Source of the DNA: Candidatus Saccharimonadia bacterium
GTDB lineage: Bacteria; Patescibacteriota; Saccharimonadia; UBA4664
Assembly (NCBI GenBank): GCA_035479295.1
Contig: DATIIV010000012.1
Location: 65,010 to 129,009 of the forward strand
Length of the DNA stretch: 64,000 nucleotides
Reading direction: 5' to 3'
This document shows, one piece after another, positions 6,644-59,069 of this stretch. The stretch's first letter is position 1. Every line of letters begins with the position of its first letter. The position numbers and the translations under genes are program-made. The notes beneath the pieces were generated by a model, which had not been told where the DNA came from, made no database searches, and saw nothing but the letters and a program-made list of their open reading frames with translations.

Positions 6644-6690
6644 AGAGCCAGGCCGCAAAAAAAAGGCCGATGGACCTTACGGGATGAGAC

Positions 6691-8667: not shown

Positions 8668-9458
8668 ACCAGGACTCCATCGCTGAGCCGGATTTCCCGG
8701 TCGGCTTGGGCGGCAATGTCGGGGTTGTGAGTCACGATCACCACCGTGGTGCCCGCAGTGGCCCGGATATGCTTGAAGAGCTCGATGATGGCCGCGCTGT
8801 TGGTGCTATCCAAGTTGCCGGTGGGCTCGTCGGCCAGCAGGATACGGGGTTTATTAAGCAGGGCCCGGGCCACGGCCGCTCGTTGAATCTGGCCGCCCGA
8901 GAGCTGTTTGGGCAATTGCTGAGCCTGCTCCGATAACCCCACGATTTGGAGCAGCTCGCGGACTCGGGCCTGCCGGTCCGCTGGCTTAACGTGGCCAAAC
9001 ATACCCGGCACCTCCACGTTTTTGCCCAGCGGCAGAAACGGCTGCAGGTAAAAGAATTGAAACACAAAGCCAATGGTTTGATTGCGAAACTCAGCTAAAG
9101 CGGTGTCTTTGAGCCGGCTGAGGTCGTGTCCTTCAATCGTGATTTCGCCGCTGGTGGGCTTATCGAGGCCGCCCATCAGCTGCAGCAGCGTGCTTTTGCC
9201 GCTACCGCTCGCCCCGGTGAGCGCCACAAACTCACCTTCATGGATATCCAGTGACACGCCGTTGAGAGCATTCACTACTTGCTTGCCTCGCTTATATCGC
9301 TTGGCTACATCTTTTACAGACAACACCACTGGTCCGCTCGGAGCCTCCTGAGGCTTGGGCAAGGTAGCGGCTGGAGCTTGCAGTGATTGAGCCGCCAGCA
9401 CGGCATCGCCGTTAAATAACTCCAAGAAATCCCGAATTTGTTGCGGAGTGGCGGTCAT
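8664..9458 (-). CDS. ABC transporter ATP-binding protein (MacB/LolD-like)
   Basis: Walker A GASGSGKST, signature LSGGQIQR, Walker B LLADEPTGNLD, H-loop VVIVTHN. Coupled to the permease by a 4-nt overlap. Confidence 0.9.
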   Translation of the reverse strand: MTATPQQIRDFLELFNGDAVLAAQSLQAPAATLPKPQEAPSGPVVLSVKDVAKRYKRGKQVVNALNGVSLDIHEGEFVALTGASGSGKSTLLQLMGGLDKPTSGEITIEGHDLSRLKDTALAEFRNQTIGFVFQFFYLQPFLPLGKNVEVPGMFGHVKPADRQARVRELLQIVGLSEQAQQLPKQLSGGQIQRAAVARALLNKPRILLADEPTGNLDSTNSAAIIELFKHIRATAGTTVVIVTHNPDIAAQADREIRLSDGVLV

Positions 9459-32709: not shown

Positions 32710-34035
32710 ATGGATGATATTCAGTCTCAGCCTATCTTTTTGATTATTGTTGGCATCTCGGGCGATTTGGCGCGTCGCAAGCTCTTGCCGGCTCTGCGCC
32801 AGATTGCGGCGGCGGGTGAGTTGCCACGCGAGTTTCGGGTTATCGGCATCACCCGCCGGCAGCTCAATGTGGCCAGCCTAACGGCCGGCGATGCCTTTTT
32901 GGCCGCGCACCTGGAGCTCTACCAAATGGATCTGGCCGAAGTCGCGGCCTACGACGGCCTTAAGCGACATCTGGCACAGCTCGAGCAGCAGTTGGGCGGC
33001 GCGGCTCAGCGGCTGTATTATCTCTCGGTGCCGCCGCAGGTGTCTGGGCCAATCGTGCAATTATTGGGCGAGTCTGGCTTAGCGGCTATGCCAGACAGTA
33101 AGTTGCTGCTCGAGAAGCCGTTTGGCACCGATCTCGCTTCGGCTGAGGACTTTATTGCCCACACCCAGCGCCACTTTACCGAGGACCAAATCTACCGCAT
33201 CGACCACTACTTGGCCAAAGAGATGGCTCAGAATCTGCTGGTATTTCGGGGCGGCAATGCGCTGTTTCGGCGCACCTGGAACCATGAGTTTATCGAGCGC
33301 ATCGAGCTGCTGGCCAGCGAAGAGATCGGCATTGAGGGTCGCTCGGCCTTTTACGAGCAGACCGGCGCGCTGCGCGATTTGGTGCAGAGCCACCTGCTGC
33401 AGCTGGCGGCTCTCACGCTCATGGAGGTCCCGCCGGCCGGCGACGAGACCCAGCTGCGGGCGGCCCGGCTCGCCGCCTTGCAGGCGCTGCAGCCGCCGGT
33501 CGATAGTACGCGGGATGTGCGCCGCGGCCAGTATATTGGCTACCGGGCCGAGGTGGCCAACCCCGCTAGTGCCACCGAGACGTTTGTATCGCTGACGCTC
33601 CGATCGCACGATCCGCGCTGGCAGGGTGTGCCCATTACGCTCACAACCGGCAAAGGCCTGGCGCGCAAAACCACCGAAATTCGAATTCATTATCGTCAGA
33701 GCGAGGCCGACGAAGCCAATGAGCTGGTGCTGCGCGTGCAGCCGCGCGAGGGCATCGAGCTTGATCTGTGGGCCAAGCGACCCGGCTACGACCATCGGCT
33801 CGAACGCGTGCCGCTCGAGTTTGCCTACAGCCGTCACTTCGACTCGCTGCCGGAGGCCTACGAGCGCGTGCTGGTCGACGCCATGCGGTCGCGCCGCAGT
33901 CTGTTTGCTTCGAGCGAGGAGGTACTGGCCTCGTGGCGCATCCTGGCGCCGGTGCAGCGGGCTTGGGGCATGAGCGATAAAGACTTAATCCTCTATCCGC
34001 TTGGCAGTGAGCCGGCCGCCGTCATTGGTCGGTAA
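32710..34035 (+). CDS. zwf: Glucose-6-phosphate 1-dehydrogenase
   Basis: N-terminal NADP site IVGISGDLARRKLLPAL, active-site IDHYLAKE, and the EKP motif (LLLEKPFG). Confidence 0.9.
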   Translation: MDDIQSQPIFLIIVGISGDLARRKLLPALRQIAAAGELPREFRVIGITRRQLNVASLTAGDAFLAAHLELYQMDLAEVAAYDGLKRHLAQLEQQLGGAAQRLYYLSVPPQVSGPIVQLLGESGLAAMPDSKLLLEKPFGTDLASAEDFIAHTQRHFTEDQIYRIDHYLAKEMAQNLLVFRGGNALFRRTWNHEFIERIELLASEEIGIEGRSAFYEQTGALRDLVQSHLLQLAALTLMEVPPAGDETQLRAARLAALQALQPPVDSTRDVRRGQYIGYRAEVANPASATETFVSLTLRSHDPRWQGVPITLTTGKGLARKTTEIRIHYRQSEADEANELVLRVQPREGIELDLWAKRPGYDHRLERVPLEFAYSRHFDSLPEAYERVLVDAMRSRRSLFASSEEVLASWRILAPVQRAWGMSDKDLILYPLGSEPAAVIGR

Positions 34036-34750
34036 TCGCTGCCATAAAGGCCGCTGCAATCGCTGCATAACCTCGCTCGTTGGGATGGAATCGGTCGGCG
34101 GCTAGCTTGCCCGTCCAGGGCAGGGCAAAGGCCGGCCCCATATCTGCTATTTTGAGTCCACGCTGCTGAGCCTGTCGATGCAGAAGCCGGCTGGCCGCTC
34201 GGTAGCGCAACACCGGTGCTAGCAGCGGCGGAATGTTAGGTCGGGCAAAGATATCGGCTACCACGGCGCCGTGTGGCAGCTGCATGAGCAAATGGTCGAG
34301 CCGCCGGAGCAGATGGCGGCGACCGCCGGGCTGAACCAAATCGTTGGAGCCGATCATAACGGTGATCAGATCGGGCCGGAGGCCCAGCTGATCCAGCACC
34401 GGCAGTTGATGATCGATCACGTCCTGAATTCGCCCACCACTAACCGATAGATTGATGAGTCGGTAGCTCCGACCGACCGCAGCTAGCCGTGCGTGGGCCT
34501 GGCCGACCCAGCCGCGGTCGTAGGCCGGGGCGCCAATGCCCTGCGACATCGAGTCGCCGAGTACCACCCACAGCCGGCCCGACCCACCAAGGGCTTGCTC
34601 ATTGGCTTGGTGCCAGGCCGCCGCATACGGCTCTGCTTGGTCTTGCACGGCTCGAAGCGACGGCCACAACTGCCGCAGTAACCGCCGTCCCAAGGCCAAG
34701 CTTGGGTGTAGGGGAGTGCGCCGCTGATAGGAGTTGGTCGCCAAAGCCAC
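34022..34750 (-). CDS. SGNH/GDSL-family hydrolase
   Basis: GDS motif VVLGDSMSQGIG. The C-terminus overlaps the zwf stop by 14 nt (convergent). Confidence 0.7.
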   Translation of the reverse strand: MALATNSYQRRTPLHPSLALGRRLLRQLWPSLRAVQDQAEPYAAAWHQANEQALGGSGRLWVVLGDSMSQGIGAPAYDRGWVGQAHARLAAVGRSYRLINLSVSGGRIQDVIDHQLPVLDQLGLRPDLITVMIGSNDLVQPGGRRHLLRRLDHLLMQLPHGAVVADIFARPNIPPLLAPVLRYRAASRLLHRQAQQRGLKIADMGPAFALPWTGKLAADRFHPNERGYAAIAAAFMAAITDQ

Positions 34751-34758
34751 GGGCCGGT

Positions 34759-36987
34759 TTAGCTCTGGGCGGCGGCGCCAGACTCAGCCGTTTTGGCTCT
34801 AGCCTTAGCTTCGGCCGCTGCTCCGTTGGGTTGCGGCAGCACAATTACCGAAGTGGTCTTAAGCGGCAGCGCGAAGCCAAAGATGCTACCCTTGCCCTCC
34901 TCGGACTTAAAAATAATCGAGCCACCTTGGTCCTCGATCACGCGCTTAGCTAGGTACAAGCCCAAGCCGGTGCCGTCCGGCCGCTCGGCCTTGGCGTTCT
35001 CGGCCCGGTAAAACTTGGAGAACAGGTGACGCTTCTCGTTCTCTGGCACGCCAATGCCGCTATCGATTACCAGCACCTCGGCAGCGCCCTCAGACTCGCG
35101 CACCTCCACCGTGACGCTGCCCTTGGGCGTGTAGTAAATGGCATTATCGATAAAATTCATAATCACCTGGCGCGTCTTGCTCTCGTCGATCGACAGCATG
35201 GGCAGCGGCTTGTCGGGCTGCTTAAAGATGAGTTCCAGCTTCTTGCGCTCGGCGCTCGGCCGCAGCTGCTGCACCTCCTGCTGGGCCAGCTCGCTCAAGT
35301 CCACCGGCTGGCGCTGAATCATAAACCGCCCCGAGCTCAGTCGCGACACATTCAGCAGATCGCTCGACATCGACACCATCCGCTCGGCCGCCTCTAGCGC
35401 GTAGTTAACATACTCGCGCTGCTTCACCGTCATGTTGGCCTGGTCGTCATCGAGCGCCATCGACAAGTAGCCGGTAATGGCGGTCAGCGGCGTGCCCAGC
35501 TGGTGCGACGCCATCGAGATGAAGTCGTCTTTGGTCTTATCCAGCACCTGCAAGTTGCGGTTGGCGGTGCGCAGTCGGTGCGTCGCATTGCGAATCCGCT
35601 CCTGCAGCGTGGCGTTAAAGTGGGCGATCTCTTCGTAGGATTTAGCGTTCTCAATCGCTACGGCTAGTTCTTTGCGGACGATATCGAGCAGCGTCAGATC
35701 CTGGCCCGAATACATTTCGCCACTCATCTTGTAGCCCAGGAAGAGATAGCCCACTAGCTCTTTCTCGGTGCTTAACCTAATAATGACGCCTAGGCCATGC
35801 TCCTCTAGGAATGATTTGGTTGCACCGGGCTCAAGCTCATCTGCTACCAAGGTGCTAGCGTTAATGTGCTCTAAATCCTTGTAGGTAAGTTTATAACGGG
35901 GCTCGTCACCAATGAATGTACGACTATAAATACTGTTGTTCTCGACAATGATGATTTGACCAGTAGCGATGCGCAATGACCAACAGAGCGTGCGCAATGA
36001 CTTCTTGAGGAGCGGTTCAAGTAAGAGCTCTGAAGTCAGAATCTCGCTTAAATCATCGAGCACGATCTGACTGTCGTAGCGATCTCGAAAGAATATGCTG
36101 TCGGTGACCTTCTCGAACAGTCGGCGTAAAGGCTGAAAGGTAATGGCTAGAAATAGCGCCAGGGCAACAAAGACACCAGTTTGGGCTAGCGGGATATTAT
36201 TCTGAAAGAGAATGTTGCTTGCCGCTAGGATGGTAATTCCATACAGGCCAATAAAAGTTGTAAGAAGCAAAAGATAGGCAACTGATCGGGCGACGGCTAG
36301 CCTGATACTAAAGAGTCGATGCTTAACGATAGCGTACGAGACCGACCCCACCAAGAAAACGGTTAGCAATGGGCCGATGCGCGATATGTCCCAGTTGCCG
36401 ACGATAGCCGGAATGACAATGTTTGTGAGCACAGCCAAGATAATAAAACCCGCTATTCCCAGCATAATAAGACGAGTTTGAGCGCGAAGCCGCAAGTCGA
36501 TTCCAGTGTTCCGGTACAGCTTCCAGAGGTAGTAGCAAGATAGTCCAAACATCACCAAGATGAAAATGGGGTAGAGAGTATAAAGGCTGCCGAGAGCAAC
36601 GTTGGTTCCTCCGTCGGGCCGCTTTGAGACGGGACCAACCACGAAATCGCTTAAAGAGAAGATGGTGCCAGCAATAATAATGACGGCACTAACAAGCTGT
36701 CTCCGCTTGCTGGCGCTTTGTTTGCCGCCAAAGTAAAACGCAAACAACGTTATGGTGGCTAACACGAGAAAACCGGCGCCAAAGTCAAGGCGAGCAAAGA
36801 ACTGATCAAGGCCAAGCGTGGGAGCTCGGTCGGTAAGATAATTGAAGATCGTCCAGGCGGTGATTGACAGGGAGATGCCAAAAAACGCCCGACTCTCGGC
36901 TCGCTGAGGGTTACGCATAAACACGAGCGAGCCGAGAGCCAAATTGCTTACTGAGGCGAGTATGAGGATGGCGAGGTCAAATATCAT
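34759..36987 (-). CDS. Sensor histidine kinase with 7TM-type N-terminal domain, GAF, HisKA, HATPase_c (paralog of 53845-56013)
   Basis: 7-8 TM helices (NLALGSLVFMRNPQRAESRAFFGISLSITAWTIFNYL...). H-box FISMASHQLGTPLT, HATPase GTGLGLYLAK. The start codon overlaps the stop of the upstream acyltransferase gene. Confidence 0.85.
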   Translation of the reverse strand: MIFDLAILILASVSNLALGSLVFMRNPQRAESRAFFGISLSITAWTIFNYLTDRAPTLGLDQFFARLDFGAGFLVLATITLFAFYFGGKQSASKRRQLVSAVIIIAGTIFSLSDFVVGPVSKRPDGGTNVALGSLYTLYPIFILVMFGLSCYYLWKLYRNTGIDLRLRAQTRLIMLGIAGFIILAVLTNIVIPAIVGNWDISRIGPLLTVFLVGSVSYAIVKHRLFSIRLAVARSVAYLLLLTTFIGLYGITILAASNILFQNNIPLAQTGVFVALALFLAITFQPLRRLFEKVTDSIFFRDRYDSQIVLDDLSEILTSELLLEPLLKKSLRTLCWSLRIATGQIIIVENNSIYSRTFIGDEPRYKLTYKDLEHINASTLVADELEPGATKSFLEEHGLGVIIRLSTEKELVGYLFLGYKMSGEMYSGQDLTLLDIVRKELAVAIENAKSYEEIAHFNATLQERIRNATHRLRTANRNLQVLDKTKDDFISMASHQLGTPLTAITGYLSMALDDDQANMTVKQREYVNYALEAAERMVSMSSDLLNVSRLSSGRFMIQRQPVDLSELAQQEVQQLRPSAERKKLELIFKQPDKPLPMLSIDESKTRQVIMNFIDNAIYYTPKGSVTVEVRESEGAAEVLVIDSGIGVPENEKRHLFSKFYRAENAKAERPDGTGLGLYLAKRVIEDQGGSIIFKSEEGKGSIFGFALPLKTTSVIVLPQPNGAAAEAKARAKTAESGAAAQS

Positions 36988-37796
36988 GCGGGCGTAGGTC
37001 CTGTAAATGCTGGAAACTTGAAGACTTCTTGAAGACCCTCGCCCCGGAACAGCCAGCCAAATCGCTTTGGGTCATTAACGCAAAGGCGCGCCATCCAGTC
37101 CTCGATATCCACCCAAACGGGCAGGCTCAGACTTGAACCAAGGTAAGGCTTCCAACCTATCCCCTCGTAGTAGCTAAAGGGTTCACCAAGTCTGCGCTTG
37201 AAGCTGTTGTGAGCGGACTCATCAACTATTGTAACCCAATAGCGAGCAGCTTGCTCTAGTGTATACTTACATGCCATGTGGTAGATCGCCTTGGCGATCC
37301 GGCCCGAGTATGCGTGGCGATGGTAGGCCGGGACTACCCCCATTGTCACCATGTCTAGCGTAGTTTTGGGGCCAAAGTCGACAGCAGCGGCTTGTAGCGC
37401 CTGAGTTAGCGGTAGGTTCCAGTACCGACCAGGCTCGCTTGACTCGATGTCGGTGAGGCTTTTAAAGCCGAGGGGCGACCGTCTGATCACTCGCAACATT
37501 CCGGCTGGTAGACCGTTTGCATGGTCGATAAGGATAAAGAATGTGCTGTAGGGATCATATGGCCCATACTCTCTCTCTAGATCCTCTGGCGTGTCCCCGT
37601 AGAAAGCGAATACGTCCGCCTCCGCCAACCGCGCGACTGGCAATGCCCAGTGCGGTGTGCCGGTTTGGGGCTCGATGCGATAGACGCCAAATGGCTGCGA
37701 TGGCGCGGCATTACCCTGGTCCATGAGGCGGCGAATCAGGTCCTTAGAGCGAATCGTCTCTTCCCACTGTTCTCGCACTAGCCCCGTAGCGACCAC
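36984..37796 (-). CDS. LuxI/FeeM-fold N-acyltransferase-like protein (autoinducer-synthase / N-acyl-amino-acid-synthase superfamily, GNAT-related); product unknown
   Basis: Motif block LEREYGPYDPYSTFFILIDHANGLPAGMLRVIRRSP parallels LasI ESDRYDALGPTHYLLALDDQGQVVGCLRLLPTT. 270 aa. 4-nt overlap with the HK gene. Paralog of 53094-53807. Confidence 0.5.
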   Translation of the reverse strand: MVATGLVREQWEETIRSKDLIRRLMDQGNAAPSQPFGVYRIEPQTGTPHWALPVARLAEADVFAFYGDTPEDLEREYGPYDPYSTFFILIDHANGLPAGMLRVIRRSPLGFKSLTDIESSEPGRYWNLPLTQALQAAAVDFGPKTTLDMVTMGVVPAYHRHAYSGRIAKAIYHMACKYTLEQAARYWVTIVDESAHNSFKRRLGEPFSYYEGIGWKPYLGSSLSLPVWVDIEDWMARLCVNDPKRFGWLFRGEGLQEVFKFPAFTGPTPA

Positions 37797-50678: not shown

Positions 50679-51461
50679 ATGACGAAATTGTTGGCTGGCA
50701 AGGATGTGGCCGGATTCATTCAGGAGCGCCACGCCCAGACGGTGCGAGGCCTTCTGGTTGCGCCCAAATTGGCGATTGTGCGCCAGGGCGCCACGCCGGC
50801 TACCGATGCCTATCTGCGCGTTAAGAAGCAGTACGGCGCCGATATCGGTGTGATGGTTGATACTTACACCGAGGCGCCGGCCGATCTGATGGCCCGCATT
50901 GCCGCGCTCAACGCCGACCCCAGCGTCACCGGTATTATCGTGCAGCTGCCGTTTGCCGATCAGCCGGACCTGGCTGAGCAAGCGCTGGCGGCGGTGGCGC
51001 CGGCCAAAGATGTGGACGGCCTGAGCCCCCACTCACCATTTGAGGCCGCCACTCCCAAGGCTATTCTGTGGCTGCTGGCGGCCTACAACGTTGACCTGAG
51101 TGGCCGCCGCATCGCCGTGGTGGGGCAGGGCCGGCTGGTCGGCGCGCCACTGGCCGACCGCCTCGACGCCAGTGGCCATGACGTGGCGCGCCTCGACGAG
51201 CACACACCCAACCTGGCCGCCGCCCTGCACGACGCCGGCGCTATTATCACCGCCACCGGCCAGCCCGGCCTCATCACCTCGGCCATGGTAGCCGACGGCG
51301 CCATCGTGGTCGACGCCGCCTCGCCCCGCAGCGACCTGGCCCGCGACCTCTTCGACCGCGCCGACCTCATCATCACGCCCAATCCCGGCGGCGTCGGCCC
51401 CATGACCGTGGCGTCATTATTCGACAATTTACTGATTGCGGCGCAGACTCGTCATCCCTAA
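50679..51461 (+). CDS. folD: Bifunctional methylenetetrahydrofolate dehydrogenase/cyclohydrolase
   Basis: GIIVQLPFADQ (compare ILVQLPLP), catalytic region DVDGLSP, Rossmann VVGQGRLVGAPL. Somewhat short at 260 aa. Confidence 0.75.
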   Translation: MTKLLAGKDVAGFIQERHAQTVRGLLVAPKLAIVRQGATPATDAYLRVKKQYGADIGVMVDTYTEAPADLMARIAALNADPSVTGIIVQLPFADQPDLAEQALAAVAPAKDVDGLSPHSPFEAATPKAILWLLAAYNVDLSGRRIAVVGQGRLVGAPLADRLDASGHDVARLDEHTPNLAAALHDAGAIITATGQPGLITSAMVADGAIVVDAASPRSDLARDLFDRADLIITPNPGGVGPMTVASLFDNLLIAAQTRHP

Positions 51462-51912
51462 GCTATCTGTCTCTAGCTAAGGCAGCGCTCATATTGTAGT
51501 ATCGTTTCGGGCCAGGACCGCTAGGTTTTGGCCGCCATCTCCTAACTTACTCAGAGATGAGGTTAGTGTGTCGCGCCCTCGTTGGCCCTGAACCGCCACC
51601 CCCGCCCGAAACAGCTCAAGACTTGGAGGTAGAACTAGAGCCGGACCCCGATACGCTCTCGGCTCTCGACGGTCTGCCGCCGGGCGATCACGTCGCCTGG
51701 CTCGATGCCCATGATCCCAACGCTAGATAGGATCGAGATGTCGCATACCAAGGCACGCGGAACGGCCAACAATCCCCGACCGGGAAGTGAGAGGGGTGTG
51801 GGCTCCAGCCAGACCTCCACCTCCACTACCTCCTCCTCGGTCACCAAATAACAAGCATTCGCCTAGCGATTCTTCTCGCTGGTTGCCCGTCGGGCCTGGT
51901 GGCTCGGCCGGT

Positions 51913-52299
51913 CTAAACCTTCTTGGCTAGTAGCGCCTTTACCCGCTCCGTCACCTCTTTGGGCGTCATCTCGGCCTTCACAATGTAGTCGTCGGCGGCC
52001 ATTTTGTAGACGCGCGTGGCCGTCTCGGTGTCGCCCATGTTGGTTAGCACGACCACTTTAGCGTCGCGCCCATTGGCCTGAGAACGCAGCTTTTGCAGCA
52101 TCTCCAAGCCATTCATATTGGGCATCATCAAATCGAGCAAAATAATATCAGGTGCAAACGACTCAATTAATTCCAGTCCACCGGCGCCATCGCCGGCCGT
52201 GGCCACCTCGTAGCCCTCATTCTCAAACTTCACCCGATACATCTGCACGATCGCCATGTCGTCCTCGATGATCGCCACTTTGACTTTTTGGTCACTCAT
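51913..52299 (-). CDS. Response regulator, receiver domain only
   Basis: VAIIEDD, LLDLMMP, YIVKAE. 128 aa. Confidence 0.85.
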   Translation of the reverse strand: MSDQKVKVAIIEDDMAIVQMYRVKFENEGYEVATAGDGAGGLELIESFAPDIILLDLMMPNMNGLEMLQKLRSQANGRDAKVVVLTNMGDTETATRVYKMAADDYIVKAEMTPKEVTERVKALLAKKV

Positions 52300-52362
52300 A
52301 TCTGTAGTTTATAACGCGATTTAACCATAAGCAATTATTTCTCAGCTAATTTGTAGCTGCTG

Positions 52363-53010
52363 CTACTCGATAGGCAGACGATAGATGCGGTTAAGAATCT
52401 GGAGAGCAGTAAGCTTCTCTGCTGCCTCCAGCGGCTTGCCCACCGTAATGGCATAAGAAGGCCATAGCCATCGGCCGCGGCACCACTCGATGTGCACTGG
52501 AATTATCTTTACTTGAGGAGTCTTGGCTAGAACTTCAATGCCGCTTCGGGGCCGAATCTTATGCGGTGTGCGCTTGCCCTCAGGAAAGATCATGATAGAT
52601 TGGTGGTGTTTCAGAAACAGCTGGGCTGCAGTGAGGCCATAAATGTAAGAGGCATTGGCGCTAGCCGGGAAAGCTCCAAACGCAAAGAGGAAGTGACGTA
52701 GGAACTTGTCGAAGAGGGCGTTATGGGCAAAAAAGCGGAGAGGTGCTAGGCCGGCAAGGATGCCTGGTGGAAGTGCGACGCAAATTATAAACGGGTCAAA
52801 CATGCTCTGGTGATTTGCTGCAACTATATAGCAATGATCAGGACTAATATCACCAGGCTGGAGGTTGACTCTAGTCCGATGCGGTAGCAAGTGGGTAATG
52901 AGGCGAATTGGCCAGTAAAGGACGCGCTGACTGAGTAAGATCACGCGAAGACGGCCAGGCGATAAAAGCGAGTCAAGGGACGCAAAAGATTTTACTTGAG
53001 TAGCCGACAT
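52363..53010 (-). CDS. Lysophospholipid acyltransferase (PlsC-like, LPLAT family)
   Basis: Motif I VAANHQSMFD (H-x4-D) and motif III FPEGKRT. Confidence 0.7.
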   Translation of the reverse strand: MSATQVKSFASLDSLLSPGRLRVILLSQRVLYWPIRLITHLLPHRTRVNLQPGDISPDHCYIVAANHQSMFDPFIICVALPPGILAGLAPLRFFAHNALFDKFLRHFLFAFGAFPASANASYIYGLTAAQLFLKHHQSIMIFPEGKRTPHKIRPRSGIEVLAKTPQVKIIPVHIEWCRGRWLWPSYAITVGKPLEAAEKLTALQILNRIYRLPIE

Positions 53011-53093
53011 CGGTAAAATTGATGATATGTAATTGCGTAATTATATAATAATATTAAAGGCAATGCAAGATGCAAAATGAGGAGTAATAGATA

Positions 53094-53807
53094 GTGACAA
53101 ACAGGCAGGAGGGGGCGGCTGAGTCGGGGAAAGGGGGACTTGGCTCGAGGCATTTGCATTTTGAGGAGCATGGACTGGTCTTTCGCGAGTTAACAGCAGA
53201 GGCCGATTTTAGGGCCGCTTATCGGCTGCGTTATAAAATCTGTGTAGAGCAGCTGCATTGGGTGCAGGGGGTTCCCGAAGAGCAGCTTGAGTACGATGAT
53301 TATGATAAGTACTCGTACCACTTTGGCTGTTTTAGGGAGAGTAAGCTTATAGGGTATATGCGTATGACGCCAGAAGATAATTCCGTGGGCACCATGAGCC
53401 GCGACCACTTTGGCCATCTCTGGCAAATTGACCCTCAGTACCCTACCCACGAAACGGCTGACCTATCCCGACTCTTGGTGGATCGGCCCTATCTGCATAA
53501 ACCCTTGCTGCTGCGGCGAATTCTGATTGGTTTATACCGACTGGCCTACGGAAGGGCAGAATTGAGTCGGCCGCGCATTCGGTATTGGTATTTTATTACC
53601 ACGGGACGCTTGCTTAAGGCTTTAAGATGGCAGTTAGGCTTACCCGTCAAAGTGTTTGGCCACGATCAGACCTCAGATGGCAAAACCACCTATGCAGTCG
53701 GCCTCGATTTACAGCGGGGTCGCCGGAGACTCGCTATCCTCGCACCTTGGCGTCTTATCTACTTTGCCAGGGCTAAGCGGCTTCAACGCGATAATGAGCG
53801 TCCATAG
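53094..53807 (+). CDS. LuxI/FeeM-fold N-acyltransferase-like protein (autoinducer-synthase superfamily), paralog of 36984-37796
   Basis: GTG start with RBS GAGGAG. AYRLRYKICVEQLHWV...EEQLEYDDYDKYSYHFGCFRESKLIGYMRMTPE...DHFGHLW aligns to LasI RAEVFRERLGW...ESDRYDALGPTHYLLALDDQGQVVGCLRLLPTT...DVFPGLL. Confidence 0.55.
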   Translation: MTNRQEGAAESGKGGLGSRHLHFEEHGLVFRELTAEADFRAAYRLRYKICVEQLHWVQGVPEEQLEYDDYDKYSYHFGCFRESKLIGYMRMTPEDNSVGTMSRDHFGHLWQIDPQYPTHETADLSRLLVDRPYLHKPLLLRRILIGLYRLAYGRAELSRPRIRYWYFITTGRLLKALRWQLGLPVKVFGHDQTSDGKTTYAVGLDLQRGRRRLAILAPWRLIYFARAKRLQRDNERP

Positions 53808-53844
53808 TATCAACTTAAGCAAAAGAGCTATAGAATAAAGATTA

Positions 53845-56013
53845 ATGGATTATCGGGCATTACTTCTATTTTTAGTAACGGCTGCGAATCTTTTCCTGGG
53901 TCTTGCCGTTTACTTTCGCAATCCTCGCAATCGCCAGTATATCTATTATTTTGCTTTTGCCTCATCGATAGCGCTCTGGACCTTAACCAACGGGCTCTAT
54001 CAGATTTTCCCGCCGCGCCTCCTTTTATCGATGGCGCTTTTGAGCTATGCCAGTGCCATCCTTATGGCCACCTTTTTCCTGCTGTTTAACCGTGAGTTTA
54101 CCAAAATTAAGCTAGGTCCTGACTGGCTGATCCTGCTTGTGGGCGGCCTAATGGCCTTAGTCGCGCTCAAACCTGGCGTACTAGCCTCCTCGATCGCTGC
54201 TGATCGCTCCATTGTTACTACTCCGGGAATCGCTGTTATGGCCATCTTGCTGGTTGGGTTTCTGTCGTGGGGCTTATTACTGTTGGTTGCATCGTTGCGC
54301 CGAGCTCGAGGCTTAGTCCGCACTCAGCTGCAGTTTATGTTGGCTGGTATGACAACTGCCGCCTTAATGGGGGTGCTATTTAACTTAGCACTACCGGTAA
54401 TGGGCCATATTTATACCTATGTTTATCTCGGCCCCGACTTCACGACTTTTTACGTCGCTGCCATTGCCTACAGCGTTATTCGGCAGCGTCTCTTTAACTT
54501 ACGGGTAGCTATTGCTCGGACGATAGCGTATCTTTTGGTCTTAACGGCTATGGCTGGCATGTACATTGCGGCTATTTTAAGTATAACTTCATACTTCTTG
54601 CCGTCGGGTCGGATCTCTGGCAGCCAAAATCTGATCTCGACCGTCGTAGCGATTGTACTGGTTTTCACCTTCCAACCCCTCCGCCGCTTCTTTGAGCGCG
54701 TTACCGACAGTGTGTTTTATCGTGATCGGTACGATTCGCAGGTGGTGTTGAATGAGTTCAGCAAGGTGCTGGTGTCGGAGCTGGATCTGGATCGGATTCT
54801 GCGCCGCAGCCTCAGTCAGCTGTGCCGCGACGTGCACATTCAGTTTGGGCAGCTGGTGATCTTTAATCAGGACCGAGTGTACCGGGTGGAGCACTTTGGG
54901 CCGCTGCCCAAGCGGCTGATGGTGGCGCCGGAGCTGCGGCGGCTGGATGAGTCGCTGCTGGTGGCCGATGAGCTTGAGGCCGGCGAGCGCAAGACCATCA
55001 TGGACGAGCACGCCGTGCGTGTATCGGTGCGGCTGGCCACCCGCGATGAGTTCGTGGGCTACCTGCTGCTGGGCGATAAGCTGTCGGGCGATATTTACTC
55101 CAACCAAGACATTGAGCTGCTGGAGATTATCGGTAAGGAGCTGGCCGTGGCGATTCTGAATGCCAAGGCCTATGCCGAGATCGAGGCTTTTAACCGCACA
55201 CTGCAGGAGCGGGTCGATCACGCCACCAATCGACTGCGCGTGGCTAACCGCCACCTCAAAGAGCTTGATAAAGCCAAAGATGAGTTTATTAGCATGGCCT
55301 CGCACCAGCTGCGCACGCCGCTCACTACCATTAAGGGCTATCTGAGCATGATGCTGGAGGGCGATGCCGGGCGTCTCACCGCCGCCCAGAAGCAGTTTGC
55401 CGGCTACGCTTTTAGCTCGTCGGAGCGCATGGTTAACCTCATCTCCGACCTGCTTAATGTAAGCCGCCTAAGTGCCGGCCGTTTTCTGATTCAAACCAAG
55501 CCCACCGATATGGTGGCGATGGTGGCCGACGAGGTGCGTCAGCTGCAGAGCCATGCCGCGGCTAAGCACATTAGCCTCATCTTTGAGCAGCCACCAGCTG
55601 ACTTTCCGCTGGTGGAGATCGATGAGAACAAGACGCGCCAAGTCATCATGAACTTTATCGACAACGCCATTTACTACACCCAGACCGGCAGCGTGCGGGT
55701 GCGGCTTACCTTGGCCGGGCCGATCGTGCGGCTCGAGGTCATCGACACTGGCATTGGCGTGCCAGCAGCCGAGAAGCGCCACCTGTTCACCAAATTTTAC
55801 CGGGCCGAGAATGCCCAGGTGGTGCGGCCAGACGGTACCGGTCTAGGTCTGTATTTGGCCAAACGAGTGGTGGAAGATCAAGATGGTACAATACTATTTA
55901 GTAGCACCGAAGGCAAGGGTTCGGTGTTTGGATTTGAGCTACCGATTAAGCCCCGCCACAAGTCGGCGCCCAAATCGGCCAACGATAAGCAGAAGGAAAA
56001 CCAGCATGGCTAA
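53845..56013 (+). CDS. Sensor histidine kinase with 7TM-type N-terminal domain, GAF, HisKA, HATPase_c (paralog of 34759-36987)
   Basis: NLFLGLAVYFRNPRNRQYIYYFAFASSIALWTLTNGL... H-box FISMASHQLRTPLT, HATPase GTGLGLYLAK. 722 aa. Confidence 0.85.
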   Translation: MDYRALLLFLVTAANLFLGLAVYFRNPRNRQYIYYFAFASSIALWTLTNGLYQIFPPRLLLSMALLSYASAILMATFFLLFNREFTKIKLGPDWLILLVGGLMALVALKPGVLASSIAADRSIVTTPGIAVMAILLVGFLSWGLLLLVASLRRARGLVRTQLQFMLAGMTTAALMGVLFNLALPVMGHIYTYVYLGPDFTTFYVAAIAYSVIRQRLFNLRVAIARTIAYLLVLTAMAGMYIAAILSITSYFLPSGRISGSQNLISTVVAIVLVFTFQPLRRFFERVTDSVFYRDRYDSQVVLNEFSKVLVSELDLDRILRRSLSQLCRDVHIQFGQLVIFNQDRVYRVEHFGPLPKRLMVAPELRRLDESLLVADELEAGERKTIMDEHAVRVSVRLATRDEFVGYLLLGDKLSGDIYSNQDIELLEIIGKELAVAILNAKAYAEIEAFNRTLQERVDHATNRLRVANRHLKELDKAKDEFISMASHQLRTPLTTIKGYLSMMLEGDAGRLTAAQKQFAGYAFSSSERMVNLISDLLNVSRLSAGRFLIQTKPTDMVAMVADEVRQLQSHAAAKHISLIFEQPPADFPLVEIDENKTRQVIMNFIDNAIYYTQTGSVRVRLTLAGPIVRLEVIDTGIGVPAAEKRHLFTKFYRAENAQVVRPDGTGLGLYLAKRVVEDQDGTILFSSTEGKGSVFGFELPIKPRHKSAPKSANDKQKENQHG

Positions 56014-56455
56014 CACTGATACCGCCCATCAACCGGCCCAGCTGGGGGCCGGCAAGATCATCTTAATCGCCGAGGACGATCCGTTTATTTCGCGCATGTA
56101 CGAGATCAAACTGCAGGGCGCTGGCTTTACGGTTATCGTTAAGAATAATGGTCGCGACGCCTTTGAGGCTATTAAGTCTGAGCATCCGAGCCTGGCCGTC
56201 CTCGACATTAATATGCCCGAGCTGAGCGGTCTTGAGGTATTATCGGCACTACAGAGCGACGGCTTTGATCTGACGACCATGCCGGTAATCGTGCTAACCA
56301 ATTCGTCGGAGCTGTCGGATCGCAAAAAGGCGCTCAGCTACGGCGCCGAGTACCTGGTAAAGGCCGAGCTCACGCCGCGCGAGGTGCTTAATATGATCGA
56401 CGCCAAGCTCGGCCTCGACCCTGGCGACAGCGAGGCTAAGCCGGCCGATGCTTAG
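56006..56455 (+). CDS. Response regulator, receiver domain only
   Basis: ATG 56006 with RBS AAGGAAAA; overlaps the HK stop by 8 nt. ILIAEDD, VLDINMP, YLVKAE. Confidence 0.8.
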   Translation: MANTDTAHQPAQLGAGKIILIAEDDPFISRMYEIKLQGAGFTVIVKNNGRDAFEAIKSEHPSLAVLDINMPELSGLEVLSALQSDGFDLTTMPVIVLTNSSELSDRKKALSYGAEYLVKAELTPREVLNMIDAKLGLDPGDSEAKPADA

Positions 56456-56627
56456 CGCACTGCTCTTGGCGGTGGTGGTCTTCGCGGCCAGTTTTGTAGC
56501 CTTAATGGCCGTCGAAAAGCTGATTCACCGCTGGACCTACAACCCCGACCGGAGTTATCGCTGGGGCGTGTGGCTGTTCTCGAGTTTATTCGCAGTTTAT
56601 GCGTTTGTGACGGCGTTAGGCCGGTAA
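56448..56627 (+). CDS. Candidate small membrane protein (59 aa) overlapping the receiver stop
   Basis: ATG overlaps the RR stop (ATGCTTAG). Sequence MLSALLLAVVVFAASFVALMAVEKLIHRWTYNPDRSYRWGVWLFSSLFAVYAFVTALGR. Not in the ORF track because it is under 60 aa. Confidence 0.3.
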   Translation: MLSALLLAVVVFAASFVALMAVEKLIHRWTYNPDRSYRWGVWLFSSLFAVYAFVTALGR

Positions 56628-56678
56628 GGTTAACTCCGTTTTATAGCTAGCAGCCTGAATCTCAAAACCCCTCGTCTC

Positions 56679-56765
56679 GGCGCTTCCTGCCTTATAGTTC
56701 TCCCGTGAGGACTGTCTGAGCAAAGCGAGTTTCCGCAACGGGAGAACTATAAGGCAGGAAGCGCC
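56679..56765. repeat. 27-bp perfect inverted repeat (GGCGCTTCCTGCCTTATAGTTCTCCCG ... CGGGAGAACTATAAGGCAGGAAGCGCC) with a 33-nt loop
   Basis: Verified base by base: arms at 56679-56705 and 56739-56765. No U-tract follows. Confidence 0.85.
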
Positions 56766-56807
56766 TGGAACTAGGCAGAAGTGGTTTGAGGCTCAGATCT
56801 AGCAGTA

Positions 56808-56842
56808 TTGACTTAAGCATACATTAAACATACAATGTATGT
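56808..56842 (+). promoter_or_regulatory. Sigma-70-like promoter (TTGACT, 17-nt spacer, TACAAT) with an overlapping palindromic operator ACATACAATGTATGT for the TA pair
   Basis: -35 at 56808-13, -10 at 56831-36, palindrome at 56828-56842. The ATG at 56846 gives a near-leaderless transcript. Confidence 0.5.
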
Positions 56843-56845
56843 ATT

Positions 56846-57130
56846 ATGAGTAATGTTCTATTAACCATCAAAACCGATCCAGATACTAAAGAGCAGCTCA
56901 AGGCCTTTGCGGCAGAGCTGGGCGTATCAAGTACGGCTTTTGTAAATATGGTTGTAAAGCAGGCGCTTCGTGATCGTCGCGTGGTGCTAAGCACCGACCT
57001 GGAGCCAACAGCCTACTTAGAAGACATCATGCGCCAGGCCGAGGCAGATTACCTGGTTGACCGCGACATCACCCACACCAAGGGGAACCGAGACACTCTA
57101 TCGCATTTAGATAGTCTTATGAGCAAGTAG
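56846..57130 (+). CDS. DinJ/RelB-family antitoxin (ribbon-helix-helix)
   Basis: MSNVLLTIKTDPDTKEQLKAFAAELGVSSTAFVNMVVKQAL. 94 aa. 1-nt gap to the toxin gene. Confidence 0.7.
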   Translation: MSNVLLTIKTDPDTKEQLKAFAAELGVSSTAFVNMVVKQALRDRRVVLSTDLEPTAYLEDIMRQAEADYLVDRDITHTKGNRDTLSHLDSLMSK

Positions 57131-57131
57131 C

Positions 57132-57392
57132 TTGAAGGTCGATTTTACTAAGTCGTTCGATAAGCAATTTACAAAGCTGACGCATAAGCGCCAAGAACAG
57201 GCCAAAGCGGCCGTCGCATTGTTTTTGCACGATGCCCTGCACCCGGTATTGCGCAATCACGCCCTAAGAGGCGAGTGGAAAGGCTACCACAGTATTAGTG
57301 CTGGTGGTGATCTACGCTTGCATTTTAAGATGGTCGACGAGAATACGGCGTTATTTGTGGCAGCAGGAAGCCATAGTCAACTTTATAAATAG
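57132..57392 (+). CDS. YafQ-family (RelE/ParE superfamily) mRNA-interferase toxin
   Basis: HALRGEWKGYHSISAGGDLRLHF and AAGSHSQLYK parallel E. coli YafQ HPLQGSWKGYRDAHVEPDWILIY / RTGTHAALFG. Confidence 0.75.
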   Translation: MKVDFTKSFDKQFTKLTHKRQEQAKAAVALFLHDALHPVLRNHALRGEWKGYHSISAGGDLRLHFKMVDENTALFVAAGSHSQLYK

Positions 57393-57419
57393 CAGGTCTA
57401 CCTTATACTTATTTAGAGC

Positions 57420-58505
57420 TTACGGCAGACTAAGCGTGTCGCGAAGGCGCCGCAAGGTGTAGGGCTGGCCGGGCAGCTGATATTGGCCTGGTGCGGTAGT
57501 AACGGCCGTAGCGTAGCCGGCCTCTTGCACGATCTGGATGGTGGTGGCGTTGTAGTTGCCGTAGGGGTAGGCAAAGTCGCGGATGGGGTGGCCGAGCTCT
57601 TGCTCGAGCTGAGTCTTGGAGTCGATAATCTCGTGGCGCTGGTCGTCGGCGCTGAGGCTCGCCAGATTGGGGTGGTCCAGGGTGTGGCCGCCAATGGTAA
57701 TGAGCCCCGAGCGATCGAGCGTACGTACCTGATCCCAGCTCAGGTAGGCGTCGCCACAGCCACCCGGCGGTTGGACGGGATCGTTGTAGCGGCGGCCCGC
57801 GCCGATACACCAATTGCTCTTAGCGCCTCCATTAATGATGTAGTAAGTGGCCCTCATATGGTGCTGCTGCAACAAGGTAAAGGCTTGCATCTGGTTGGCA
57901 AAGCCATCGTCGAAGGTTAGGACGACGGGCTTGGCCGGCAGCAAATTGTTGCCAGCCAGCGCCGCTGCCACCTGGTCGAGGCCAATGGTGGTGTAGCCGT
58001 GCTGCTCCAGGTACTCCAGCTGCTGCTCGAAGTTGGGCGGGGTATAGTGATAGAGCACGATGGGGATGAAGAGCTCGCCGGCTACCGCGGATGCAGACGA
58101 GTTCGGGATGGGCCCCTTAACGGCTTCGTTAGCGGCATCGGTGAGCCGGTTGTTCCACTGCGTGAGCGAAGCTCGTAGCGAAGCAATGGATTGCTGAGCA
58201 GCGGTAAATCGACCTTGCGCAAGGTCTAATTGAATGCTGGCCAGGGTGCTACTAAGAGTTTTGGGACTTACGAGTTCCAGATGAGCCTTGGTCTGGCGGG
58301 CCTCGAAGTCTTTGACCGCTCGAGTAGCGGCGCCGAGCGAGACCCGCAGCGCATGCGGCGCCTGTGATGGGCCGGCGACTGCATCGGGGGCGGGCAGCGT
58401 TAGCGCCACCATGGCGCCACTACCCAGCAGGGCCAACCCGACTAAGCTAAAACATATCATTTTTTTGGCCCGCCCTAAGCTAAGGCCGCGCAACGAAAAG
58501 CCCAT
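57420..58505 (-). CDS. Polysaccharide deacetylase (NodB-homology domain) with an N-terminal signal/anchor and a coiled region
   Basis: LTFDDGFANQ motif. Start at 58505 or the internal ATG 58460. Confidence 0.75.
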   Translation of the reverse strand: MGFSLRGLSLGRAKKMICFSLVGLALLGSGAMVALTLPAPDAVAGPSQAPHALRVSLGAATRAVKDFEARQTKAHLELVSPKTLSSTLASIQLDLAQGRFTAAQQSIASLRASLTQWNNRLTDAANEAVKGPIPNSSASAVAGELFIPIVLYHYTPPNFEQQLEYLEQHGYTTIGLDQVAAALAGNNLLPAKPVVLTFDDGFANQMQAFTLLQQHHMRATYYIINGGAKSNWCIGAGRRYNDPVQPPGGCGDAYLSWDQVRTLDRSGLITIGGHTLDHPNLASLSADDQRHEIIDSKTQLEQELGHPIRDFAYPYGNYNATTIQIVQEAGYATAVTTAPGQYQLPGQPYTLRRLRDTLSLP

Positions 58506-58514
58506 TGAATTCCA

Positions 58515-59069
58515 TTATAGGGCGTGCGAGCTAGGCGTGGCAACGCTTGGTGCGGTACTAATGGCCTGCAGGTGCCGCCGCCACTCCAGGTAAACCAGCC
58601 AGGCCACGATGGCGTCAAAGCCGGTTAGCAGGGCTAGCCCCAGCGAGTGGTCGTAGCCGACCCGGTAGGCCTGATAGGCAATAAAGAGCAGCAGAAAGCC
58701 AATCGCCCAAGGATACAGATGATAATGCTGGCGCAATAGCGCAATGGCCAGGCCGAGCTTTATGGCGCCGTGGCCCAGTAGGTACAGGGCCGCTAGCAGC
58801 GCAAAACCCGGCGTCAAATGATTGTCGAGCGCCGTAATAGCCTGAGCGATAAAAGCGTGGTGGTCGTCGGCCAGCTCGTAAATGGCCAGCCCAGCCCAGC
58901 CGTGCAGCTTGCTAATGGGCACGATGAGCAGAAACAGGCCACCCATCATCTCGATGAGGCCGTCGAAGCCCTTGATGGCTACCGCGATGCGGAAGAGCCA
59001 GTCGAGCACGGGTTGTGGTATCAGGCGTTTCACAGCTAATAGCTTAGCGGTTGTTGCCGGATTACTCAA
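58515..59069 (-). CDS. Membrane protein, hypothetical (DUF2127-like topology)
   Basis: 184 aa, 4-5 TM. Confidence 0.45.
   Translation of the reverse strand: MSNPATTAKLLAVKRLIPQPVLDWLFRIAVAIKGFDGLIEMMGGLFLLIVPISKLHGWAGLAIYELADDHHAFIAQAITALDNHLTPGFALLAALYLLGHGAIKLGLAIALLRQHYHLYPWAIGFLLLFIAYQAYRVGYDHSLGLALLTGFDAIVAWLVYLEWRRHLQAISTAPSVATPSSHAL

Follow-up and report, generated by a model that had tools for sequence, protein, structure and literature searches.

Cassette B lies in a soil MAG of a Candidatus Saccharimonadia bacterium, a member of an ultra-small lineage that is probably host-dependent, within the 64-kb stretch of DNA analyzed here (the window). It contains a synthase-like enzyme, a lipid acyltransferase, and a membrane sensor kinase, and has the appearance of a system for making a lipid signal together with a dedicated receptor for it. 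The forward-strand genes code for a LuxI/NAS-superfamily N-acyltransferase of 237 aa (53094 to 53807), a polytopic sensor histidine kinase of 722 aa (53845 to 56013), a receiver-only response regulator of 149 aa (56006 to 56455), and a two-helix membrane protein of 59 aa (56448 to 56627), and the reverse-strand genes code for a PlsC-like (LPLAT family) O-acyltransferase of 215 aa (52363 to 53010) and a second receiver-only response regulator of 128 aa (51913 to 52299). All of the cassette B features named in a preliminary description of the region are present in the ORF list where it had placed them. These include the 37-nt gap between the acyltransferase stop and the kinase start, the 8-nt overlap of the receiver ATG (56006) with the kinase stop (56013), and the 8-nt overlap of the 59-aa ORF ATG (56448) with the receiver stop (56455); one gap and two overlaps give the cassette an operon-like layout.

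The divergent transcription units are separated by an 83-bp intergenic region (53011 to 53093) that has 26.5% GC and promoter-like elements in each orientation: ATGATA and TATAAT spaced by 16 nt on the forward strand (53022 to 53049) and TTTGCA and TATTAT spaced by 17 nt on the reverse strand (53076 to 53048). The matching regions of relatives are 43 to 84 bp, AT-rich, and have recurrent CATAATG/TGnTATAAT-like strings. Cassette B as a whole is AT-richer than its flanks, as previously remarked, with 53.1% GC against 66.5% for folD, 64.1% for the ATP-synthase genes, and 58.8% for the whole window. The GC3 values of the PlsC-like and N-acyltransferase genes (0.53 and 0.56, respectively) are low next to those of housekeeping genes (0.79 to 0.85), which is equally compatible with low expression and with horizontal transfer. 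A terminator scan returned 10 sites (5.7 ± 2.2 expected), with none at the gene junctions, and an Rfam search of positions 51000 to 58600 gave no match.

The two acyltransferases

The gene for the 237-aa enzyme begins with a GTG at 53094, preceded at nine nt by a strong ribosome binding site (GAGGAG, 53079 to 53084), in agreement with the preliminary description. The protein matches the Acetyltransf_5 family (PF13444) at 32 bits (E 2.1e-7), above the gathering threshold of 22.4, and falls below the thresholds of Autoind_synth (PF00765; 20.9 bits, E 2.8e-4, threshold 24) and FeeM (PF21926; 17.8 bits, cut-off 27). The nearest curated model is TIGR03694, an exosortase-associated N-acyl amino acid synthase family, to which it scores 43.7 bits against a cut-off of 111.95, covering only model positions 15 to 123 of 241; this model is matched by all 65 of the sampled relatives (best E 1e-51). 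The AF2 model predicts a LuxI/GNAT-variant, FeeM-like acyltransferase fold, and in fold searches with it, acyl-homoserine lactone (AHL) synthases and FeeM match well above generic GNATs. A broad family profile also matches LasI, BjaI, TofI, EsaI, MesI, and RpaI, with E values of 5e-20 to 8e-18.

The signature residues of LasI, which from the LasI/EsaI structure papers we take to be R23, F27, W33, D44, D47, R70, E101, S103, and R104, are kept at seven of nine positions (R46, W56, D68, D71, R90, S125, and R126 in the 237-aa enzyme) and changed at two (F27 to C50 and E101 to D123). The LasI-like motif block reported earlier is present, but the assignment to the LuxI family that went with it is not supported, as the match is under the Pfam cut-off. 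The seven kept residues are also conserved in NAS-like relatives and so are not diagnostic of AHL chemistry. Because the PF00765 cut-off is failed and the nearest curated model is TIGR03694, an AHL appears a less likely product than an N-acyl amino acid, and with scores under the PF00765, PF21926, and TIGR03694 cut-offs, the chemistry of none of these families is confidently transferable. Six close homologs were identified, all of CPR/Saccharimonadia type; when GTDB genomes were scanned with a pattern from the family alignment (A1), none of the 56 matches was confirmed, and a metagenome scan with the same alignment returned no contig beyond one already known.

The PlsC-like protein matches PF01553 at 46.9 bits (E 3e-12, cut-off 23) and scores 47.6 bits to TIGR00530, under its cut-off of 103. 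Its translation contains the HX4D motif as H67-Q-S-M-F-D72, as well as an FPEGKRT motif. The subfamily is rare, with 18 matches at E<1e-5 among 5.8 billion proteins, and a PlsC-like gene is divergent to such cassettes in 13 to 14 of 32 close loci (L001, L014 to L017, L019, L020, L024, L025, L031, L032, L035, and L039). The link between this gene and the cassette, originally offered as speculation, is strengthened by this recurrence of a rare subfamily in the same divergent position. The gene is absent from L006, L008, L011, L018, L036, L082, and cassette A (see below), and is a frequent yet dispensable cassette partner. The 128-aa receiver (Response_reg, E 2e-25) has no output domain, and its gene follows the PlsC-like gene after 63 nt in the same orientation; a receiver is at the matching position in L017, L019, L020, L024, L031, and L039, and is co-oriented in L014 and L015.

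The histidine kinase and its pairing with upstream enzymes

Three domains of the kinase exceed their Pfam gathering thresholds: HisKA_7TM (PF16927; 29.6 bits, threshold 28.6), HisKA (PF00512; 65.1 bits, threshold 26.9), and HATPase_c (PF02518; 83.5 bits, threshold 26.4). A GAF-like region is weakly detected (GAF_2, E 0.023), and relatives match GAF_2 or GAF_3. Crude hydropathy gives about eight to nine hydrophobic segments in residues 1 to 275, and the HisKA_7TM region is accompanied by two further hydrophobic segments and a conserved TFQPLRRFFERVTD motif ahead of the GAF-like region. The best match to the sensor half is the PrsK model TIGR02916 (E 1.3e-6, residues 13 to 441 against model positions 6 to 461), with a score of 27.3 bits against an equivalog cut-off of 300. 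The receiver that follows matches Response_reg (E 1.3e-20); of 28 close loci, 22 have a receiver gene after that of the kinase, and 14 have the 59-aa ORF after the receiver. The 59-aa protein belongs to no Pfam family; it has two hydrophobic segments and shares 47 to 71% identity with its counterparts in three other loci; 22 residues are invariant, as is the HR..PD.S..WG.WLF core (alignment A4), a conservation indicating that the ORF is a real gene.

The order of the enzyme followed by a kinase of this family is present in all seven independent homolog contexts with downstream DNA (the window, L001, L004, L008, L011, L082, and L084), at identities from 57% down to 27%; the L006 contig ends at the N-acyltransferase gene. 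Among loci ascertained through the kinase (L017 to L040), a LuxI/NAS-like gene is directly upstream in 10 of 24 and missing from the other 14, and a PlsC-like gene is present in 9 of 24. The cassettes of relatives include neighboring SAM methyltransferases and a MacB-type ABC exporter, some have methyltransferase or ThiF partners and fusions, and some kinases of the family are preceded by a ThiF-family protein and a nitroreductase. In a second cluster of upstream proteins, considered as candidate GNATs (L016, L028, L029, L035, L037, and L049), only the L035 protein weakly matches a family, Acetyltransf_9, and the L016 and L037 proteins match no Pfam family.

Divergence of the enzyme tracks that of the kinase transmembrane (TM) region and not that of the GAF domain or the catalytic core. 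Pairwise N-acyltransferase identity correlates with TM-region identity at r = 0.77, compared with 0.19 for the GAF domain and 0.23 for the catalytic core, and in a partial Mantel test the observed value was reached in none of 5,000 permutations. For 29 of 34 kinases, the nearest neighbor in the TM region has the same type of upstream enzyme. Such a mirror-tree signal could also arise through co-inheritance or recombination of one DNA block, with no contact between ligand and receptor, because the N-acyltransferase gene lies directly next to the 5′ part of the kinase gene, which encodes the TM region.

A second such cassette, cassette A, is located on the reverse strand of the window (34759 to 37796), where the gene for a 270-aa remote GNAT/FeeM-like protein (36984 to 37796) overlaps the start of a 742-aa kinase gene (34759 to 36987); a GDSL lipase is also present. 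The paralogy of the two kinases is borne out (45% identity over 714 aa). Assignment of the 270-aa protein to the GNAT/FeeM-like group is supported by its match to the broad family profile (39 bits), by an hhalign probability of 83%, and by its structural model, which has its best TM-score to FeeM. The earlier proposal that the synthase-receptor pair is duplicated simplifies too much; the kinases are paralogs, but the synthases are remote homologs with their own orthologs: the two acyltransferases are about 21% identical (BLASTP E 0.017), with A-type orthologs in L036 and B-type orthologs in L001, L004, and L008. Because of this divergence and the separate orthologs, cassettes A and B are best described as belonging to one long-established and diversified family of cassettes and not as a recent duplication. 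A 265-aa protein of L004 was considered as a cassette A homolog and rejected, as it is a second B-type paralog.

Candidate roles for cassette B

The reading we favor, although we would stop a little short of calling it probable, is that cassette B belongs to a Saccharimonadia/CPR family of small-molecule synthase plus dedicated membrane sensor modules, and that an N-acyl amino-acid-type amphiphile is sensed by the adjacent kinase. The 237-aa enzyme would make the amphiphile, to which the PlsC-like enzyme, where present, may add or exchange a second acyl chain; in relatives, the SAM methyltransferases may modify the product and the MacB-type ABC exporter may export it. The amphiphile would then partition into the membrane and be recognized by the TM bundle of the kinase, which would phosphorylate the co-translated stand-alone receiver and perhaps also the receiver beside the PlsC-like gene. 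Because both receivers lack a DNA-binding domain, output is presumably by protein-protein interaction or a phosphorelay, and as neither has an output domain, they point to no particular regulatory target. The supply of an acyl donor counts against this reading, as there is no gene for an acyl carrier protein (ACP) or an acyl-CoA ligase in the examined parts of the window, tblastn of Escherichia coli AcpP against the 64-kb window gave no match, and Saccharibacteria are believed to rely on lipids from their hosts (PMC10939385).

A rather unlikely alternative is synthesis of a structural membrane aminolipid of the OlsB/OlsA or GlsB/GlsA type, with the kinase and receivers monitoring the state of the envelope. 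In this scheme, a 3-hydroxy fatty acid would be N-linked to an amino acid by the GNAT and a second chain esterified by the PlsC-like enzyme, and a PF13444 N-acyltransferase with an adjoining PF01553 O-acyltransferase is the defining two-step logic of these pathways (PMC11631085). Both domains are encoded here, divergently around the common 83-bp promoter region, the PlsC-like subfamily is nearly confined to such cassettes, and the methyltransferases adjoining in relatives could modify a head group. However, the OlsB models fit poorly, with 17.5 bits for the 237-aa enzyme against the NF052554 equivalog cut-off of 350 and matches in just 9 of the 65 sampled relatives, and the N-acyltransferases of aminolipids are on a branch separate from NAS/LuxI (PMC11631085). 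The GNAT-kinase pair is also kept in the absence of the PlsC-like gene wherever downstream DNA exists, the 3-hydroxyacyl-ACP required is a product of FASII, which is thought to be absent in the lineage, and the tracking of enzyme divergence by the kinase TM region is left unaccounted for. This tracking also counts against host-lipid scavenging and sensing, which we regard as improbable and in which the PlsC-like enzyme, the GNAT, and the cassette A GDSL lipase would remodel host lipids and the kinase would detect lipids derived from the host and so report attachment. Saccharibacteria have been proposed to take lipids from their hosts (PMC10939385), and lipid-handling enzymes are beside both kinases (PF01553 in cassette B and the GDSL lipase in cassette A), with an alpha/beta hydrolase upstream of the L030 kinase, but scavenging offers no reason for tight, type-specific pairing of enzyme and TM region, and the enzymes upstream of some related kinases (the ThiF-family protein and nitroreductase) are not lipid enzymes.

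Genuine AHL quorum sensing, in which a divergent LuxI would use SAM with acyl-ACP or acyl-CoA and the polytopic kinase would serve as a LuxN-like AHL receptor, is similarly improbable. AHL synthases head both the sequence-profile and the structural matches, R46, W56, D68, D71, and R90 correspond to SAM-side residues of LasI, the close homolog P0015 exceeds the PF00765 cut-off at 33.7 bits, and such CPR proteins were filed as LuxI homologs by Bernard et al. (PMC7567580). The window enzyme itself is under that cut-off, however, and has Cys and Asp in place of F27 and E101, and the LasI-type residues are invariant in relatives that all match the NAS-type model TIGR03694 better than TraI, so they do not discriminate AHL synthases from NAS enzymes. 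Cassette B has no LuxR-type receptor, and the methyltransferase or ThiF partners and fusions of relatives are not known as features of AHL systems. The possibility that common descent alone keeps the acyltransferase and two-component genes together, without a functional connection, is already disfavored, and we consider it very improbable. The closest loci (L001, L004, and L006) have wider synteny in common, from folD to a polysaccharide deacetylase and purD, and conservation is therefore partly plain relatedness; but the pair persists at 27 to 39% identity amid unrelated flanks in L008, L011, L082, and L084, the reading frames overlap or nearly abut, and the enzyme co-diversifies with the TM region.

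Relation to known signaling and lipid systems

By profile matches, the closest likeness is to the exosortase/PEP-CTERM system, which likewise combines a LuxI-like acyltransferase (TIGR03694) with a polytopic GAF kinase (PrsK), but the cassette B matches are far under the cut-offs (43.7 versus 112 bits and 27 versus 300 bits), no exosortase or PEP-CTERM genes are among the cassette genes and scanned neighbors, and cassette B has no EPS genes. PrsR is of NtrC type, whereas the cassette B receivers stand alone, and the PEP-CTERM system is hosted by Gram-negative bacteria and cassette B by a Gram-positive-like CPR bacterium. LuxI-type AHL synthases (LasI, TofI, BjaI, RpaI, and EsaI) resemble the 237-aa enzyme in size (about 200 to 240 aa) and in the seven of nine signature residues, but are partnered with LuxR-type regulators and not with a histidine kinase. 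In LuxM/LuxN, AinS/AinR, CqsA/CqsS, and LqsA/LqsS, the synthase of a small lipophilic signal is encoded beside a polytopic kinase that binds the signal in its TM domain, and cassette B shares this logic, with no claim of homology; the synthases come from unrelated families (LuxM and CqsA are not GNATs), and these kinases are hybrid or feed the Lux/Lqs phosphorelays, whereas the cassette B partners are single-domain receivers. OlsB/OlsA and GlsB/GlsA share with cassette B the PF13444 N-acyltransferase beside a PF01553 O-acyltransferase, but the cassette B enzyme is on the NAS/LuxI side and its O-acyltransferase is dispensable across the family.

Synthase/kinase pairs of CPR bacteria were known earlier by computation only. 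Bernard et al. (2020, mSystems; PMC7567580) reported 36 LuxI homologs in CPR, 18 of which adjoin a sensory kinase, with Saccharibacteria OGL33891.1 among the pairs, and also counted PlsC-like "HdtS" homologs. The likeness to cassette B is at the level of the gene pair; that survey defined neither the family of the kinase nor its PlsC-like, receiver, and 59-aa partners, nor did it define the exchange of enzyme types or the co-diversification with the TM region. A broader proposal, which we advance tentatively and with some doubt, is that Saccharimonadia/CPR carry diversified plug-in modules of a signal synthase plus a matching transmembrane sensor, with TM bundles co-evolved with the upstream enzyme, for multi-channel lipid-based signaling. 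The enzymes would be of LuxI/NAS-like subfamilies, with or without a PlsC-like O-acyltransferase, methyltransferase, or MacB exporter, or else a ThiF-family protein and nitroreductase, and a genome can have several modules, as illustrated by the two in the window.

CPR bacteria such as Saccharibacteria live attached to other bacteria, and to our knowledge almost nothing is known of how they sense their partners or each other. If the module proposal is correct, these ultra-small episymbionts would use lipid-based self, kin, or host-attachment signaling, and the PlsC-containing versions would O-acylate a NAS-type product, which is not reported according to a 2024 aminolipid review (PMC11631085). 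Action of the PlsC-like partner on the product would also connect N-acyl amino acids, regarded as "signals," with aminolipids, regarded as "membrane lipids," two fields that are now treated as separate. If none of this is borne out, cassette B would be an ordinary two-component system beside lipid enzymes. Cassette B is a concrete and experimentally tractable candidate for a self-contained synthase-receptor pair conserved across Saccharimonadia, and the 237-aa enzyme is small, predicted to be soluble, and should be expressible in E. coli.

Organization of cassette B and its 237-aa enzyme

The elements of cassette B, checked against the ORF list and the raw sequence with domains assigned by Pfam and NCBIfam, are each present as listed in a preliminary description. 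A receiver-only gene (51913-52299, - strand) and a PF01553 (PlsC-like) acyltransferase gene (52363-53010, -), in whose product HX4D (H67-D72) is intact and FPEGKRT is also present, are leftward-transcribed, and an 83-bp divergent intergenic region (53011-53093; 26.5% GC) has promoter-like hexamers on each strand. Rightward-transcribed are the 237-aa enzyme ORF (53094-53807, +), with a GTG start and GAGGAG nine nt 5' of it; a 722-aa histidine kinase gene (53845-56013, +), which starts 37 nt past the enzyme stop; a second receiver gene (ATG at 56006, +); and a 59-aa ORF (ATG at 56448, +), the last two overlapping the kinase and receiver stops, respectively, by 8 nt each. Both receivers lack effector domains, and the 59-aa ORF codes for a conserved membrane protein. 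The region is also AT-richer than its flanks, as previously described, with 53.1% GC versus 58.8% for the window, and a GC3 of 0.53-0.56 in the two acyltransferase genes versus 0.79-0.85 in folD and the ATP-synthase genes. The database entry with 100% identity comes from a Candidatus Saccharimonadia MAG.

The PlsC/enzyme spacers of the window and of loci L014, L015, L017, L020, L024, L025, and L039 in other genomes or contigs are short and AT-rich (43-84 bp; 228 bp in L025) and have in common CATAATG/CATTATG strings, with extended -10 elements of TGnTATAAT-like sequence after them. Also in the window spacer (53011-53093) are the short direct repeats GTAATT N2 GTAATT and ATGCAA N1 ATGCAA, and these spacer elements may act as a common promoter or operator.

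[quoted passage not shown] An exhaustive profile search recovers 923 cluster representatives at E<1e-3, just 11 of them at E<1e-30. All 65 sampled relatives match TIGR03694 (best E 1e-51), 47/65 match TraI-type AHL synthases, and just 9/65 match OlsB; a profile of these relatives matches every solved AHL synthase (E 5e-20 to 8e-18) and does not match FeeM. The enzyme keeps LasI residues R23, W33, D44, D47, R70, S103, and R104, with F27 replaced by Cys and E101 by Asp, but these LasI-type residues are equally conserved among NAS-like relatives and so do not distinguish an AHL from an N-acyl amino acid as product. From the sub-cut-off scores, the matches of the relatives, and the residue pattern, the enzyme is assigned by sequence to the LuxI/NAS superfamily, closest to its NAS side, as a certified member of no curated family. 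Among its relatives, P0040 is a FeeM-like acyltransferase fused to a ThiF adenylyltransferase domain, and the close homolog P0015 scores above the Autoind_synth cut-off and has a C-terminal AMPK1_CBM carbohydrate-binding module.

Conservation of the neighborhood and possible enzyme-sensor coupling

The kinase family lies immediately 3' of the enzyme in each of the seven independent contexts where DNA continues downstream (the window, L001, L004, L008, L011, L082, and L084), at identities from 57% down to 27%. A kinase-sensor survey covered 65 GTDB loci, and profiles made for this analysis were used to examine 32 non-redundant loci in which the kinase is close (400 bits or more) and no less than 1 kb of DNA is available upstream. 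A LuxI/NAS-like gene is directly upstream of the kinase in 18/32 of these and the PlsC-like gene is divergent in 13/32 (14/32 with L004, where an insertion moves it 4 kb off); a receiver is downstream of the kinase in 22 of 28 close loci, and the 59-aa ORF is present in 14 of 28. Among kinase-ascertained loci, which are unbiased as to the enzyme (n=24), the LuxI-like gene is present in 10 and the PlsC-like gene in 9. The PlsC-like gene belongs to a rare subfamily (18 matches), with homologs in L014, L015, and L016 that are transcribed divergently from a short enzyme gene, after which come the kinase, a receiver, and the 59-aa ORF.

Other genes are variable. Class-I SAM methyltransferase genes are found between the enzyme and kinase genes in L014, L015, L020, and L024, and in L019 immediately upstream of the enzyme; in L032 one is probably fused to the enzyme. 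An EgtD-like SAM methyltransferase (Methyltransf_33) is coded beyond the PlsC-like gene in L001 (interval 5977-7209) and L004 (2807-4036), and a MacB-type exporter (MacB_PCD/FtsX permease plus ABC ATPase) directly 5' of the enzyme gene in L004 (interval 4993-7828) and L082 (4033-5840). The core is thus enzyme, kinase, and receiver, with the PlsC-like gene and second receiver a frequent accessory arm.

The L001 and L004 intervals also code for a 117-120-aa protein of no known family, both genes being flanked by the PlsC-like gene on one side and the upstream receiver gene on the other; the window has neither, and the corresponding gap is 63 nt. L004 has a second enzyme paralog (7031-7828; 35% identical). 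The MacB-type pairs of L004 and L082 are candidate exporters of the enzyme product, and a similar FtsX/ABC pair is located in the window at 6691-9458, remote from cassette B. In another branch of the kinase family (L021-L023, L026, L027, L054, L056, L059, L066, L070, and L071), the kinase is preceded by three co-oriented genes, ∼3.5 kb upstream, coding for a ∼500-aa protein without a Pfam match and ThiF-family and nitroreductase-family proteins (domains scanned in L021 and L026). The three genes recall the azole-forming machinery of RiPP pathways, but no YcaO domain was detected in L021 or L026. Carriers of this CPR-type kinase family include MAGs titled 'uncultured Gammaproteobacteria', 'Pseudomonadales', or 'Nanoarchaeia' (L029, L048, L050, L053, L057-L059, L062, L063, L066, L067, and L075), which could be mislabelled bins or reflect transfer.

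Pairwise identities at a coarse level for 17 enzyme/kinase pairs support the enzyme-kinase co-evolution raised in the preliminary description: enzyme identity correlates with that of the kinase TM region (r = 0.77), with no such correlation for GAF (0.19) or for the catalytic core (0.23). With the core controlled, the partial Mantel value is also 0.77, with 0/5000 permutations as high, the permutations ignoring phylogeny. For 29 of 34 typed kinases, the TM nearest neighbor has the same upstream-enzyme type, and when core divergence is similar, kinases of one type share 35.5% TM identity versus 27.4% between types, with GAF identity equal. The enzyme gene directly adjoins the end of the kinase gene that codes for the TM region, so the correlation could in part reflect recombination or inheritance as a block. 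The basic observation of LuxI-homolog/kinase pairing is not new, as 36 LuxI homologs were reported in CPR, 18 adjoining a sensory kinase and Saccharibacteria included (Bernard et al. 2020, PMC7567580); new here is computational evidence for enzyme-sensor coupling.

Comparison with cassette A

The synthase-receptor pair was previously described as duplicated. Pairwise alignment with cassette A (34759-37796, -) shows that the kinases are indeed paralogous, with 45% full-length identity that is very uneven (TM region, 24%; linker plus GAF, 51%; catalytic core, 61%), but the enzymes share only 21% identity (E 0.017) and form separate subfamilies with their own orthologs (an A-type ortholog is in L036), so that this is not a simple duplication. 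The 270-aa cassette A protein has no Pfam match of its own; hhalign of small families of the two enzymes (83% probability, E 8.5e-6), a 39-bit score with the broad enzyme-family profile, and a predicted GNAT model (pLDDT 84.7) with best TM-scores to FeeM place it in the same superfamily. Both are thus LuxI/FeeM-fold proteins, as first proposed, of different subfamilies. A GDSL lipase/acylhydrolase gene (34022-34750), 8 nt past the cassette A kinase and at the position of the receiver in cassette B, is another lipid-handling gene tied to this kinase family.

Candidate functions and downstream features

Cassette B is of a known kind that joins an acyl-signal synthase to a cognate membrane kinase, with each functional step an inference. 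LuxM/LuxN and CqsA/CqsS quorum sensing, with a synthase and a polytopic kinase, has similar logic. The closest curated matches of the enzyme and of the kinase sensor half are the NAS and PrsK (TIGR02916), respectively, of PEP-CTERM/exosortase systems (NAS literature: PMC11072679 and PMC7293339), but each match scores far under its cut-off and exosortase genes are absent from the cassette and the neighbors scanned; judged from these matches, the relation is resemblance, not membership. The most likely reading, held tentatively, is that the enzyme product is an amphiphile of the N-acyl amino-acid type, which the PlsC-like enzyme may acylate further and the adjacent kinase would sense via its TM bundle, then phosphorylating the stand-alone receivers. 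As to an acyl donor, no ACP was found within the 64-kb window, and the lineage is proposed to be host-lipid dependent (PMC10939385).

A structural aminolipid pathway would fit the pairing of PF13444 with PF01553, the hallmark of OlsB/OlsA-type synthesis (PMC11631085), but the enzyme falls outside the OlsB branch and cassettes can dispense with the PlsC-like gene, and we consider this pathway unlikely. True AHL signaling, on which the LasI-type residues are neutral, and host-lipid sensing are both improbable, and mere synteny of the genes is more improbable still.

Past the 59-aa ORF, the spacer at 56628-56845 contains an inverted repeat with perfect 28-bp arms (56679-56706 and 56738-56765) within a longer palindrome, which as RNA folds at -98.8 kcal/mol (z = -9.2), occurs once in the window, and has no T-tract and no Rfam match. 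It is located exactly at the site of a toxin-antitoxin pair (56846-57392), composed of a YafQ/ParE-type toxin (57132-57392; PF15738, E 4e-10) and a 94-aa upstream partner, between cassette B and a polysaccharide deacetylase gene. The pair looks like an insertion, as it is absent from the syntenic L001 and L004. The polysaccharide deacetylase (57420-58505) and a DUF2127 membrane protein (58515-59069) are coded by adjacent separate genes in the window, and are fused in a single 537-aa product in L015 (32-1645).
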